DNA from: an uncultured bacterium
GTDB lineage: Bacteria; Babelota; Babeliae; Babelales; Vermiphilaceae
Assembly: GCA_963701085.1 (NCBI GenBank)
Contig: OY969561.1
Span: 640,001-704,000, forward strand
Direction of reading: 5' to 3'
DNA: 64,000 nucleotides
The notes below the pieces were generated by a model. That model searched no databases and was not told where the DNA came from. It worked only from the letters and a program-made list of their open reading frames with translations. Every line of letters begins with the position of its first letter. Position 1 is the stretch's first letter. The translations under genes and the position numbers were made by a program. Of the stretch, positions 2,052-40,375 are shown piece after piece.

Positions 2052-3828
2052 ATGAAGCTGATAGCTTTATTTGCAATCATTTTTGCAATAAACATGTTTG
2101 CTATGAATGCACCAGAAAAAGCCGCCGCATTGAGCATCATGAAGCAATCTCCACTGGCGTCGAGCGGCGGCAAACGACAGGAAAACCTGTGTCCAAACAA
2201 CAAATATTTTATCTATGAAACAAATACAAAGAATGGTATCTGTATTAACAAAGAGATAGCCAAAACCTGCAAATACATTAAAAATATGATCGACGATCTT
2301 GGCGGCGATGAACCAACAGAAATTTCTATTCCCTGTTCTATCGATACCATAAAATTGGCTTTTCATGTTTTAAATAAAAAAATTAAAATTAACATCAATA
2401 AACTTTCACTCGACCAAGTTATTAATATTGCTAATCTTTTTAATTTTTTAGAAGTTCCAACAGATGAATTAAGCATCGTTTTAATTAAAATCAGCGAACG
2501 TATAAAAAAAAACAGTAACACTCTATATAACACCTTAAAAGAGTTACATCCTGATTTACAAAGATCTTTAATGACTCAACCCGCTATTGATTATTTAAAA
2601 GATTGTATTGTTAGACAGTATACAAACATTACAAGAGAATCACTCAGCAACCACCTCTCCGATATTCGTTCCGTAGCATTCGGTCACGATAGCACCAAAT
2701 TTATTTCAGGCAGTTTAGGTTTATCAAATAATCTTACACTATGGGATATAAGTAATCTCTATCACATTACTCTCGATCACTCAATGGCCCTCAACAAGAC
2801 ATTATTTCCGTAGCATGTAATCACAAAGGCACACAATTTGCTTCCGGTTCTGCAGAAAATCAAAATAATCTTGTCCTCTGGGATATAACTGATCTCAATA
2901 ATATAAAACATCGCGTATTAAATGGTCATCCAGCGGATGTTAACTCAATAGCATTTAGCCTTGATGGCACAAAAATCGCCTCTTGCTGCAAAGGAGATCA
3001 AAATAATCTGATTCTCTGGGATATAAGTGATCCAAACAATATCACCCATAAACGCTCATTGGTCATCAAGACACTGTTTATTCAGTAGCATTTAACTCTG
3101 ACAGCACAAATCTTGTTTCTGGTGGTAGGGGAGACCAAAATAATCTTATTTTATGGGATATAAGCGATCCGAACAATATCACCTCGCAAGCGCTCGTTGG
3201 TCATCAAGACACTGTTTATTCAGTAGCATTTAATCCCGATAGCGCCACCATTGCTTCCGGACATGATGACGATAAAAACAATCTTGTTCTTTGGGATATA
3301 CGCAATCCAAACAATATTACCCATCAAACACTCATTGGCCATCCAAAATCTGTTCAAACTATAGCCTTTAGCTCTGATGGAAGAAGAATGTTATCTGGCT
3401 GCTGTGGCGATAAAAACAATCTCATTTTATGGCACATAAACAATCCTAACAACATTACGTATCAATCACTCACAAGCCCCCATAGTGGCGTTTTATCAGT
3501 GGCGTTCAGTCCTAACGGTAAAAAAATGATTTCAGGAGGTCATGGTACAACAGATCAACTCTTTTTGTGGACGCTTTTAACAGACCAGCAAGAACTACTG
3601 CTGAATAACCTAGAAAATTATAAGATTGATCCTATAAGATTAATTTATCAACTCTGTTTACAAGCAGGGCAAGGCAAAACAATAACATTCAAACAAGACA
3701 GCGAAGAACAAAAGGTATTTGCAACATTACCACAAGAGATGCAGGATTTATTGAATGATCTCTTAATGTCTCACAATTCTTTTTGGTTTTACAAATTATG
3801 GGATGCTCTCATAGAAAGAGGAATGTAG
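2052..3828 (+). CDS. exported Skp1/BTB-like plus 7x WD40 repeat protein, split by two single-base deletions (~2771, ~3050)
   Basis: Signal peptide; IAKTCKYIKNMIDDLG...ANLFNFLEV resembles the Skp1/POZ fold. Seven 46-aa repeats of the form GH..V.SVAF..D...SG...NNL.LWD run across frames 3, 2 and 1. Confidence 0.8.
3059..3233 (+). repeat. 138-bp-period intragenic WD40 repeat, two copies identical over 37 bp
   Basis: TTGGTCATCAAGACACTGTTTATTCAGTAGCATTTAA at 3059 and 3197. Confidence 0.9.
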
Positions 3829-3848
3829 AAAATAAAGAGCGATATATT

Positions 3849-37346: not shown

Positions 37347-39284
37347 TTATCTCAACCGCACACCATTAGCAACACTCTCAGGGAATTGAACCAACTGAAC
37401 TTTGCCATCTGCGTCTTCCGCAACTAACATCATCCCTTGCGATTCTGTTCCCGCCATTTTACGGGGTTTTAAATTAGTAATAAACAGTCCACGTTTACCA
37501 ACCAATTCAGCAGGTGTATAAAACTTTTTGATTCCGGCTAAAATAGTACGTTTGCCCTGTTGACCCAAATCAACCGTCATTTGTACGAGCTTATCTGATC
37601 CAGCAATATCGGTGCATGCTTCAATGGTACCTGTTAACAACTCAACTTTGACGACGTCATCAATGGTTATGTAATTAGTTTCTAGTGATTGTGGCGCAAT
37701 TGTATTTTCTTGTGACACTGTTTTTCCTTCTTCTGTTTCTCGTATTGGCTTATCGAATAATGTTGGAATTTTTTTCAACATAAAATGTTTATTCCAACTG
37801 TTTAACTCTAAATTTTCGAGCGTATGCTCTTCAAGTTTGAATGGTGTTCCAAGACTTTGTAACAACGCTTCCATTTTTTGCGGCATAATCGGCCACAATA
37901 ATAATGCTATCGTGCGCAAACTATGACACGTTGCTGAAATAATTTCTTTAAATAATCTGATATCAGTCTTAGCAACTTTCCATGGCTCCTGACCATGAAA
38001 ATATGCGTTTGTTACATTGATAAATTTCCACAACCTTGATAACGCATGATGAAACATATACTCATTCATATGGGTACAAAAATCTTCTATTGTATTCCAA
38101 CTTTCATCACGTAATTCTACAGCTTCCTTAGCCCACACTGAAATTGGATTGATTTCCATAACCTCATATTTTTCTGCCAATGCAGTCATACGATTAAGTA
38201 AATTACCCAAATCATTAGCAAGATCATCTTCTATACGATTTTCCACATCAGCAATATTAAAATCACCATCTTGGTTAACAGGAATTTGGCGCAACAGATA
38301 ATAACGAATTTCATCGGTGCCGTATTTTTTTTGTAATTCAATCGGATCAATTACATTACCCAATGATTTGGACATTTTTTGCTTATCAACTTTAATCCAA
38401 CCATGCACCAACAACTGTTTGGGCAATGGCAAATCTGCAGCCATCAAAAATGCTGGCCAATATACCGCATGAAAACGAATAATATCTTTACCAAGAAGAT
38501 GCACATTTGCTGGCCAACGTTTATGAAATTCATCAACTTTATTCGGCTGCCCATACCCAACACCAGTAATATAATTAGACAATGCATCAACCCATACATA
38601 CAAAGTATGGTGAGGATCATTGGGGAATGGTATACCCCATTTGACTGTTGTACGGGAAATACTTAAATCTTTTAAACCTGATCCTACAAAACTCGTAACT
38701 TCATGCGCGCGTTCTTTGGGCATGATAAAGTCAGGATTCTCTTTATAAAATGTCAGTAGTTTATCAGTAAAAGCAGACAGCTTAAAAAAATATGTTTCTT
38801 CAGAAACAATGTGTGTATCTCTGCCACATGACGGGCATTGTGGCCCCTTGATACGCTGATCCCCTTCACGAATTTCTTCTACAAAAGTCTCACATGACGT
38901 GCAATACCAACCTTCATAGATAGATTTATAAACATATCCTTTATCCATCAAGAGAGTGGTAAATTGTTGCGCTCCTTTGATGTGATATTCATCAGTTGTA
39001 CGAATAAATTTGTCATACTCAATGTCATACATCTCCCACGCGTACTTATAATCAGGAATAAAACTATCCACAAAATCTTTGGGCTCTTTGTGTGCTGCAG
39101 CAGCTGCCTGCGCTATTTTTTGCCCATGTTCATCAGTCCCTGTTAAAAAGAAGGTATCATTACCTAACAATTTATTCCAACGGGTAATAACATCGGCAAG
39201 TAATGTTGTATATAATGACCCCAAATGGGGCTTGGCGGTGACATAGTAAATGGGAGTTGTAACGTAAAAGCTATTTTTTTTCAT
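37347..39284 (-). CDS. metG: methionyl-tRNA synthetase
   Basis: YVTTPIYYV..KPHLG, TGTDEHGQK, KMSKS and a C-terminal OB-fold tRNA-binding domain. Confidence 0.97.
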   Translation of the reverse strand: MKKNSFYVTTPIYYVTAKPHLGSLYTTLLADVITRWNKLLGNDTFFLTGTDEHGQKIAQAAAAAHKEPKDFVDSFIPDYKYAWEMYDIEYDKFIRTTDEYHIKGAQQFTTLLMDKGYVYKSIYEGWYCTSCETFVEEIREGDQRIKGPQCPSCGRDTHIVSEETYFFKLSAFTDKLLTFYKENPDFIMPKERAHEVTSFVGSGLKDLSISRTTVKWGIPFPNDPHHTLYVWVDALSNYITGVGYGQPNKVDEFHKRWPANVHLLGKDIIRFHAVYWPAFLMAADLPLPKQLLVHGWIKVDKQKMSKSLGNVIDPIELQKKYGTDEIRYYLLRQIPVNQDGDFNIADVENRIEDDLANDLGNLLNRMTALAEKYEVMEINPISVWAKEAVELRDESWNTIEDFCTHMNEYMFHHALSRLWKFINVTNAYFHGQEPWKVAKTDIRLFKEIISATCHSLRTIALLLWPIMPQKMEALLQSLGTPFKLEEHTLENLELNSWNKHFMLKKIPTLFDKPIRETEEGKTVSQENTIAPQSLETNYITIDDVVKVELLTGTIEACTDIAGSDKLVQMTVDLGQQGKRTILAGIKKFYTPAELVGKRGLFITNLKPRKMAGTESQGMMLVAEDADGKVQLVQFPESVANGVRLR

Positions 39285-40375
39285 ATCTTTTCTTGTTTTA
39301 GTTTTTCTATTTCTGCATCTTTTTCATGTACAATTTTTTCCAGAGATTCAATTCGCCTATCAAGCGCCTCGATTCTTCTACTCAATATTTTATTATAAAG
39401 ATAATTTTCAATTTCGGTAAATGTTACCAAAACATTACCATGCTTAATAAAGTGCCATGCTTCTTCAAGAGGGCTTACCAAAGAACTACCAGCCTTACTT
39501 TTATGCGTTTTTTGTTGAGCACGCAATTTAAGCTCATCAATATCAAACTTACCCGCAATCCATTCTGCCTGTTGTGGATTTTCAAAATAAATATCGATCA
39601 AATATTTAGCGATCGTTGCATATTTATGACTCAAATGCCCTATTTCATCTTGCACTTTATCAGCCTTGCGTGAAGAAAGATCAGGTGAAAGACCAGTAGC
39701 ATACAAAGAAACAAATCCTACCGCAAGAGCTCCTGCTACAGAAGCTACCGTGGGTGTCATAACCGCAGCAATCTGAGACAAGCATTCCAATTGCGTTGAA
39801 TTTGAACACTGTAATAATGCAGCAAAATTAGTAAACGGCAACAACGCCGTACCCACAATAACGGCGCCATTAATGCCAAAAACCCATGGGACAGAACGTT
39901 TAATGCGCAAAGCAGTATCAAATTTATTTTGTTGTTTTTGCGTAAAAAGAGTTTTAACCCCATTATCTTTACGAATTGTAGAAAGATACAAAAGATGATT
40001 CAACGTATCGGAATGAGAAGATAAATAAACTTCATTCTTTAAGGATAACCGAATACTTTTGAGGTCTAAATCTTTTATTGCACTAATATTTTTATTATAG
40101 TCATCCGACCAAAAATGACGCATCTCTATTGCAATATCATTTTTTTTATCATTACCATTTACCAAATCCATTGCACAAACGCTTTGAAACCAAGAAACTC
40201 CAATACACAGTGCAAAAAAACTATCCCTAATTAAAATTCCCCCCCGCGCTCGTCCTGAGCCTGTCGAAGGATATCCTCGAGCGCTCAAAGAAAACCCTTC
40301 AACAAGTTCAGGGCGAGCGCAGGAAAAAATTAGTTTAGGGATAGGTTCAAAGAAAAACAATCTATCATTATGCAT
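39281..40375 (-). CDS. hypothetical membrane protein with a TM hairpin and C-terminal coiled coil; N-terminus carries an in-frame REP-like insert
   Basis: Signal-like segment ending VCA|MD; two TM segments; stop overlaps the metG start (ATGA). Confidence 0.75.
   Translation of the reverse strand: MHNDRLFFFEPIPKLIFSCARPELVEGFSLSARGYPSTGSGRARGGILIRDSFFALCIGVSWFQSVCAMDLVNGNDKKNDIAIEMRHFWSDDYNKNISAIKDLDLKSIRLSLKNEVYLSSHSDTLNHLLYLSTIRKDNGVKTLFTQKQQNKFDTALRIKRSVPWVFGINGAVIVGTALLPFTNFAALLQCSNSTQLECLSQIAAVMTPTVASVAGALAVGFVSLYATGLSPDLSSRKADKVQDEIGHLSHKYATIAKYLIDIYFENPQQAEWIAGKFDIDELKLRAQQKTHKSKAGSSLVSPLEEAWHFIKHGNVLVTFTEIENYLYNKILSRRIEALDRRIESLEKIVHEKDAEIEKLKQEKI
40246..40320. repeat. 'module A' REP-like dimer hairpin (75 bp)
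   Basis: GCGCTCGTCCTGAGCCTGTCGAAGG...GAGCGCTC...CCTTCAACAAGTTCAGGGCGAGCGC. Confidence 0.9.

Follow-up and report, generated by a model that had tools for sequence, protein, structure and literature searches.

The subject of this report is a group of genes in a 64,000-nucleotide stretch of contig OY969561.1 (assembly GCA_963701085.1, positions 640,001 to 704,000 of the forward strand), hereafter called the window, whose predicted products carry a signal-peptide-like leader that ends immediately before an internal methionine. The window has a GC content of about 37% and belongs to a bacterium of the Babeliales (Dependentiae/TM6). Babeliales are known to live as intracellular parasites of protists, and Dependentiae are described as parasites of protists in passages of two genome papers (PMC6561590, PMC4776705). 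Homologs of the WD40 proteins of the window carry the name Candidatus Babeliales bacterium, and so does locus L001, which together with L002 and L003 is syntenic with the window. These three loci, 48 kb in all and none of them from the window's own genome, made up the comparison DNA; the methionyl-tRNA synthetase (MetRS) of the window is 86% identical to those of L002 and L003, and the range among the compared genomes is 86-90%. Encoded in the window are DnaJ, NurA, the SUF system, a PilB/GspE ATPase, LepB, an M23 peptidase, a Bat-like operon, TopA, MetRS, BamA, GltX, RbfA and PilD, together with two HAD hydrolases that also have leaders and with WD40, ankyrin and collagen-like proteins. The pattern of a leader followed directly by Met is real and conserved. 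Six firm families (two kinds of WD40 protein, an ankyrin-repeat protein and three kinds of orphan) are predicted to carry it on ordinary Sec-type leaders, and a seventh case is doubtful.

An earlier note on this DNA had quoted the residues around the junction for nine of these proteins and for a possible tenth, and all ten N-termini were quoted correctly (FA↓MN, NA↓ME, NA↓MQ, IA↓ME, SG↓MD, VA↓ME, VG↓ME, VG↓ME, CA↓MD and MS↓MQ, the arrow marking the junction). Its caveat that several of the genes are paralogs was borne out by repeat comparison within the window. We grouped the genes into a WD40 family (F1), an ankyrin family (F2), three tandem orphans (F3) and the genes starting at 2052 (F4), at 20614 (F5) and at 40375 (F6), and kept the gene starting at 33609 apart as doubtful (Table 1).

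Table 1. Candidate genes, associated hairpins and repeat elements, and other genes of interest; positions refer to the window unless a comparison locus is named.
Feature	Position	Strand	Junction Met codon	Remark
F4, first piece of WD40 gene	2052-2813	+	2103-2105	17-residue leader, then Met-Asn
F3 paralog 1	14480-15277	+	14552-14554	24-residue leader, then Met-Glu; Shine-Dalgarno (SD)-like AAGGAG before leader ATG, none before inner ATG
F3 paralog 2	15437-16234	+	15512-15514	25-residue leader, then Met-Gln
F3 paralog 3	16265-17032	+	16340-16342	25-residue leader, then Met-Glu
F5, orphan of 85 residues	20614-20871	+	20683-20685	23-residue leader, then Met-Asp; SD-like GAGG before leader ATG
Doubtful tenth case	33049-33609	-		Leader ends FASC-MS-MQ
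F1, WD40 beta-propeller	33859-35151	-	35095-35097	18-residue leader, then Met-Glu
F2, ankyrin-repeat protein	35170-36243	-	36181-36183	20-residue leader, then Met-Glu
F1, WD40 paralog	36309-37343	-	37287-37289	18-residue leader, then Met-Glu
F6, orphan	39281-40375	-	40169-40171	Leader split by in-frame insert, then CA↓Met-Asp
28-nucleotide (nt) hairpin and T run	35068-35095	-		From the G of the Met codon of 33859-35151; z -2.9
Second hairpin copy and T run	37260-37287	-		From the G of the Met codon of 36309-37343; z -5.3
Hairpin copies in comparison loci	L001 1298-1325; L002 10057-10084 and 13020-13047; L003 10042-10069
GC-rich repeat element, about 88 nt (families D14, D15)	40243-40330			In leader-coding region of F6
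Second copy of GC-rich element	20903-20989
lepB, signal peptidase I (S26)	21030-22004	-		Peptidase_S26 match, E 5e-33; presumed cutter of these leaders
PilB/GspE-type ATPase	17029-18282	-		Pfam domain match
pilD (A24)	62203-62820	+		Domain match

The F4 gene is broken, with WD40 repeats running over three overlapping frames (2025-2813, 2756-3088 and 3052-3828, all on the + strand). Its tandem repeat units are 138 nt long with one spacing of 137 nt, and the gene is either a pseudogene or the product of an assembly slip in the repeats; a Skp1_POZ match of its N-terminal domain was weak (E 0.011) and below cut-off. In F6 the GC-rich repeat element has been inserted into the leader, keeping the frame and adding about 50 residues. 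An F6 ortholog in L003 (7096-8049, 67% identity) has an intact leader of 23 residues ending VSA↓ME. By eye, the N-terminal extensions of two open reading frames (ORFs) of L002, at 6790 and 14862, resemble a translated copy of a similar GC-rich element. The F1 paralog at 36309-37343 starts 3 nt past the MetRS stop and contains the repeat families D3, D8 and D10. For the doubtful tenth case, which the earlier note had offered with reserve, the sequence was right and the cut is ambiguous, since it may fall at C↓MS, at S↓MQ or at a lipobox-like FASC; this gene alone has such a lipobox-like sequence just before its Met residues. A kinship to the VA↓MQ genes of L001 and L002 was considered for it and rejected (E 1.4). 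F3 had no Pfam match at E up to 1, F5, F6 and the doubtful case had at the same threshold only weak matches below the curated cut-offs, and a search of the ESM Atlas with F3 and F6 gave no usable match.

Leader features were counted in those 52 of the 60 sequences of the F1 and F2 alignments that have at least 12 residues before the junction. Lys or Arg occurred within the first six residues in 48/52, the median leader length was 20, and an acidic residue among the last 14 leader positions was found only twice. The leaders show the n-, h- and c-regions of a signal peptide, with a charged n-region and a hydrophobic core. None of the 52 contained the twin-arginine pair of a Tat signal, and Cys stood at the junction column in one, so that the F1 and F2 leaders do not look like substrates of signal peptidase II (SPase II), which processes lipoproteins. 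A type IV prepilin leader, the substrate of PilD, is short and charged, ends in Gly and is followed after the cut by a hydrophobic segment with Glu at +5. In the leaders described here the hydrophobic segment precedes the Met, polar residues follow it and Glu stands at +2, which does not agree with a prepilin. Because of the basic start, the length of 20 residues, the missing twin-arginine pair and the scarcity of acidic residues, we consider these leaders to be, on their predicted features, genuine Sec-type signal peptides.

Which ATG starts translation was addressed by searching for an SD-like motif 4-17 nt upstream of the ATG in 21 leader-Met genes from the window and the loci. Such a motif precedes 31 of the 46 genes of the window. 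It was found before the leader ATG of 10 of the 21 genes and before the inner ATG of none, and the leader ATG is therefore the start and the inner Met not the main start codon. The earlier note had itself raised the concern that the internal Met might be the real start, and both these counts and the leader features speak against it.

The position of the cut was examined by a register test on 66 leader-bearing members of all families, aligned on the Met. The rule applied was the (-3,-1) rule, i.e. that the residue at -1 be small, that the one at -3 be uncharged and either small or aliphatic, and that Pro be absent from -3 to +1. It was obeyed exactly before the Met in 59/66 sequences, at offsets of one to four positions to either side in 0-12/66 and at offset -5 in 28/66. 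The residues at -1 were Ala (22), Gly (20), Ser (15), Cys (4), Pro (4) and Leu (1), those at -3 were mostly Ile (30) and Val (15), then Leu (7), Ala (5) and Thr (4), and polar Ser, Thr, Asn or Pro was common at -6 and -5. The cleavage pattern is thus in register with the Met bond named in the earlier note, and the likeness of the leaders to substrates of signal peptidase I (SPase I) is supported by the same register. At +1 the 66 sequences had Met in 60, Ile in five and Cys in one, and the 60 Met were followed by Glu, Asp, Asn or Gln in 52, by Lys or Arg in seven and by Ile in one. The earlier claim of a Met-[EDNQ] N-terminus consequently stands for the majority and has to be given up as an invariant dipeptide, the single F4 homolog, with Met-Arg, being a case in point; [EDNQ] after Met is a preference. 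From these residues we predict an SPase I cut immediately before the conserved Met, which is usually followed by Glu.

The Met proved to be conserved in homologs. Within F1, M19 and E20 were invariant in 23/23 homologs which share 28-46% identity overall. A full HMMER search with F2 gave 356 matches at E up to 1e-3, and among 37 cluster representatives that cover the N-terminus and have less than 50% mutual identity, the Met column contained Met in 30, Ile in five, Cys in one and a gap in one. The linker between this Met and the first conserved block of F2 varies in length and sequence. The only outside homolog of the F3 gene at 16265-17032, P0002 (48% identity), retains LIA↓MEQ, the single homolog of F4, P0027, retains the Met, and the F6 orthologs likewise retain the junction Met. 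AlphaFold models built on the alignments had a mean predicted local distance difference test score (pLDDT) of 88 for F2 and 82 for F1, with values below 50 at residues 15-29 of F2 and 1-22 of F1. Because of this low confidence around the junction in both families, the Met is not modelled as a packed core residue. A fold search with the F2 model returned ankyrin and DARPin matches only. By eye, the conserved F2 block past the linker looks similar to the core of an F-box (aromatic-Pro followed by a K-K-x-I-L-L-E-L type of run); Pfam gave no F-box match for F2.

We further asked how often such a junction would arise by chance. In the window proteins (18,578 residues) internal Met makes up 2.13% (0.0213) of the residues and E, D, N and Q together 20.1%. 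Among the 25 window proteins with leaders, which fall into about 20 families as grouped by eye and by rule listing, Met at the cut in six families has a probability of 2.8e-6 for one fixed position and of 1.2e-2 when the Met may stand at any one of five; for seven families the values are 1.2e-7 and 2.7e-3. The other 15 leader-bearing proteins of the window (BamA, Bat proteins, HAD hydrolases, large surface-type proteins and small orphans) had no Met-[EDNQ] at a rule-compatible site. Two of the 15 have Met-Ala or Met-Gly within the hydrophobic core, with better sites downstream. A six-frame scan from every start codon for a hydrophobic stretch, a small-x-small motif and Met regained 6/10 candidates. 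Outside the candidate genes it listed spurious frames, inner starts and other proteins, in which Met was followed by S, A, T, G, R, I, W, P or M and never by E, D, N or Q. The four envelope proteins that had been cited as lacking the motif were confirmed to lack it (MA↓D at 43172-47524, HA↓S at 41220-43079, HA↓E at 59913-61385 and FA↓V at 40525-41193), and with none of the 15 non-candidate leaders of the window carrying it the motif does separate orphan and eukaryote-like proteins from envelope proteins, as had been proposed.

A comparison of leaders between genes showed that a 5' module, consisting of upstream bases and leader, has moved between unrelated families. The gene at 11818-12936 in L002 has an ankyrin body that is 46% identical to F2 of the window, and in its leader and upstream bases it matches the WD40 gene next to it: 35/36 nt are identical over leader codons 1-12 and 14/45 past the junction. 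Homolog P0031 is a similar chimera, with the end of an F1 leader and the first mature motif of F1 on an ankyrin body. Such swapping of leader modules is a way to build new secreted proteins from existing bodies. Elsewhere in the window two tandem small orphans (5555-6073 and 6103-6345, + strand) are almost the same in their 5' region and leader (83% identity over 104 nt). These two leaders, with AKA↓D at the junction, form a duplicated leader module without the Met signature. The leader of the collagen-like protein (62917-63879, + strand), in which 9-nt periodic Gly-X-Y repeats occupy 63472-63819, ends YA↓HP and also lacks the Met.

The F1 genes carry an additional feature at the nucleotide level. 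Codons 19-30 make up a hairpin in which 11 pairs close a 6-nt loop, with a T run behind it. This hairpin is exact in five of six genes from four genomes, and the sixth has one wobble-compatible change. Folding z-scores ranged from -2.9 to -5.3 in all six hairpins. Over the first 12 mature codons, 131/131 codons at identical amino acids were identical between genomes, whereas codon identity was 0.62-0.65 in the rest of the F1 gene and 0.64-0.70 in MetRS. Because of this difference we conclude that part of the Met-Glu invariance in F1 is held at the level of RNA or DNA. A scan of the window for terminator-like sites gave nine sites against a shuffle mean of 4.0 and listed both window copies, and the hairpin has the GC-containing stem, short loop and T run of an intrinsic terminator, so that it can be called a predicted terminator. 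A search of Rfam found just two tRNAs in the window and at the hairpin a single match (E 0.41, 14.3 bits) far below the gathering score. RNA structure was also tried as a general cause of the pattern and rejected: the 15 junctions compared, which belong to the other families and to short F1 paralogs, folded no better than shuffles (z -1.0 to +1.0). All 15 retain the Met, with Met-Glu still present in the short F1 paralogs that lack the hairpin, and the hairpin therefore covers part of the F1 invariance and not the general pattern. The hairpin looks like an intrinsic terminator or attenuator set just after the signal-peptide codons, and being frozen at synonymous sites, it represents a separate regulatory candidate.

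Taken together, these data suggest to us that selection keeps Met as the residue with which the exported protein begins once mature, and that it might act there as an N-terminal determinant after Sec export; we give this reading a probability of about 0.45. The proteins would be exported by Sec and be lineage-specific, and the leader module would spread by duplication and recombination. The Met itself would most likely have originated as the initiator of a once leaderless, eukaryote-like protein that was given a portable leader, and it would have been kept for a role of the N-terminus after cleavage. One option for such a role is that the residue escapes trimming and host degron reading, as Met followed by a non-hydrophobic, mostly acidic residue might form an N-terminus that is neither trimmed nor a degron. 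The other is that it labels the cargo for a second export step. A bolder version, which we think unlikely to hold as a whole, would have Met-acidic on a portable leader serve as an effector address label, i.e. a post-Sec code selecting cargo for release into the host, with the F1 codons doubling as an intragenic attenuator through which transcription would be coupled to signal-peptide translation.

Several observations weigh against selection of Met as the first mature residue. Seven of the 66 sequences break the cleavage rule at the Met, with Pro at -1 in four, Leu at -1 in one, or Asn or Met at -3, and the 66 are related within families and aligned on Met and are hence not independent. A rule-based cleavage picker run on F2 (43 members scanned, nine called leaderless, three without a site) named a site in 31 members and ranked the cut before the Met first in only 12 of them, the Met cut being an alternative site for others. 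The picker often chose sites within the hydrophobic core and was dropped as too crude in favour of the register test. Five homologs (P0004, P0022, P0035, P0036 and P0043) are annotated as starting exactly at the Met, and part of the F1 invariance is held at the level of RNA or DNA, as described above. As regards stability, Ala, Ser, Gly and Thr also yield stable N-termini, and stability alone therefore does not explain the choice of Met. Moreover Ile, which replaces Met in 5/66, is a destabilising first residue in eukaryotes.

Other explanations have to be considered. The inner ATG might be kept as a second start codon, either to initiate a leaderless cytoplasmic isoform or to allow switching between secreted and non-secreted forms from lineage to lineage. 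This would explain why Met specifically is kept and not any small residue, and the sequences of the F1 and F2 alignments annotated from the Met (5/60) fit the idea, although these leaderless entries may be cut contigs or choices of the gene caller. We consider it unlikely, in view of the complete lack of SD-like motifs before the 21 inner ATGs in genomes where, judging from the window (31/46), most genes have one, and in view of the replacements observed, which were Ile in five cases and never the Val or Leu expected of GTG- or TTG-type starts. The Met might also be a functionless relic, a fossil start codon left by 5' extension or module capture that recurs through descent and recent duplication. 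Leader modules do move between families, several of the window genes are paralogous and the compared genomes are fairly close (MetRS 86-90% identical), all of which speaks for a relic. Neutral decay would, however, have erased the Met from F1, in which it is invariant at 28-46% identity, and the F2 Met persists in 30/37 representatives that are less than 50% identical while the adjoining linker is scrambled; we therefore regard a mere relic as improbable.

The conserved element might instead be a nucleic-acid signal at the junction (attenuator, pause or recombination site), with Met-Glu as its by-product. The F1 hairpin argues for this, being exact in five of the six genes of four genomes and wobble-compatible in the sixth, with negative z-scores throughout (-2.9 to -5.3 in 6/6), 131/131 identical codons against 0.64-0.70 in MetRS, and both window copies recovered by the terminator-like scan. 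As a general cause it is contradicted for F2-F6 by the 15 other junctions, none of which folds better than shuffles and all of which have the Met, and even in F1 the invariant stem allows no covariation to be demonstrated and matches no Rfam family. We judge it very unlikely to account for the pattern. The earlier note had linked the motif to NatB. Met followed by D, E, N or Q is the substrate class of this eukaryotic N-acetyltransferase, and a cut protein beginning with Met-[EDNQ] could be acetylated by the NatB of the host and so mimic a host protein. The excess of E, D, N and Q after Met (52/60 against a background of 0.20) agrees with this, but NatB acts on nascent chains at the ribosome, and acidic residues just past the signal peptide are common in exported proteins generally, so that the bias at +2 needs no host explanation. 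Lys or Arg after seven of the 60 Met and Ile after one do not form NatB substrates, and because of the seven basic cases in particular the NatB version becomes weaker still; we assign it a probability close to negligible. Selection for Met at the start of the mature, exported form, with Glu or a similar residue as a preferred neighbour, remains the reading that we favour.

Some neighbouring genes deserve comment. The earlier note had mentioned lepB, PilB/GspE and pilD alongside its idea of an export route. Their presence in the window was borne out; they are housekeeping genes, and their occurrence here gives no hint of a dedicated route. The PilB/GspE ATPase is split over two overlapping ORFs (17029-18282 and 18203-18775, - strand), with the MshEN N-terminal domain and the T2SSE ATPase domain in different frames, either because the gene is truly split or through a frameshift or an error in sequencing. 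The frame of pilD is open from 62026 (62026-62820, + strand), and its first ATG, GTG or TTG occurs only at 62203. The ORF from 62203 matches just positions 46-82 of the 84 positions of the A24 N-terminal domain profile, and the stretch upstream contains by eye zinc-finger-like Cys pairs; this would fit a non-canonical start or loss of the N-terminus. Directly upstream of the full-length dnaJ (706-1830) lies a short ORF encoding a J-domain only (407-676, + strand), and the two have a common segment of 130 nt at 77% identity.

Dependentiae encode many eukaryote-like proteins with signal peptides, ankyrin and WD40 proteins among them, and a brief conserved signature where the mature protein is predicted to begin would be a simple way to list candidate effectors in this phylum. 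The Met or the Glu would also provide a concrete handle for work on export and on stability in the host. Passages of the two genome papers name no injection system known for the phylum (PMC6561590, PMC4776705). No description of Met after the signal peptide was found in the literature on signal peptides, ankyrin and WD40 proteins of Dependentiae/Babeliales, as represented mostly by titles, or among the 15 of 66 papers listed on effectors and the N-end rule.

In comparison with known systems, the F1 hairpin resembles intrinsic (Rho-independent) terminators and attenuators in its stem of 11 pairs, its 6-nt loop and the T run. It differs from an intrinsic terminator in lying inside the coding region of an apparently intact gene, where it is translated as a conserved peptide. 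The leaders resemble SPase I signal peptides in their charged start, hydrophobic core, polar c-region, small residue at -1 and small or aliphatic residue at -3, and lepB is present. Met is rare as the +1 residue after signal peptides, whereas here it occupies +1 in 60/66, and -3 is mostly Ile or Val rather than Ala. That the first mature residues can set a later destination is known from lipoproteins, through the +2 rule (Lol avoidance) and the Bacteroidota lipoprotein export signal. The likeness would be that one or two residues past the cut decide the destination; unlike the present proteins, lipoproteins have a lipidated Cys and are cut by SPase II, and Cys was seen here at +1 in 1/52. In Plasmodium, proteins with the PEXEL motif are cut by plasmepsin V after RxL in the endoplasmic reticulum and have E, Q or D at the second position. 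As an analogy only, a processed N-terminus with E, Q or D at the second position there marks host-bound proteins, but that system is eukaryotic, uses a different enzyme and depends on an RxL that the present leaders do not have. Listeriolysin O is turned over by the N-end rule in the host, and there too a signal-peptidase cut exposes a first residue that the host can read; for the proteins described here, arrival in the host cytosol and a Met-dependent half-life are hypothetical.

The closest comparison is with Chromulinavorax destructans of the same phylum, for which passages of its genome paper give predicted signal peptides on 44% of coding sequences and 78% of ankyrin-repeat proteins, and propose the signal-peptide proteins as Sec-exported host effectors (PMC6561590). 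The likeness lies in the phylum and in signal peptides on ankyrin proteins. The difference is that the passages of that account on signal peptides and secretion do not mention the residue after the cut, the word 'N-terminal' occurring zero times in its text. What is new in the present case is that signal peptides of the ordinary kind are combined with a conserved and unusual signature at +1/+2, which is tied to one cargo class.

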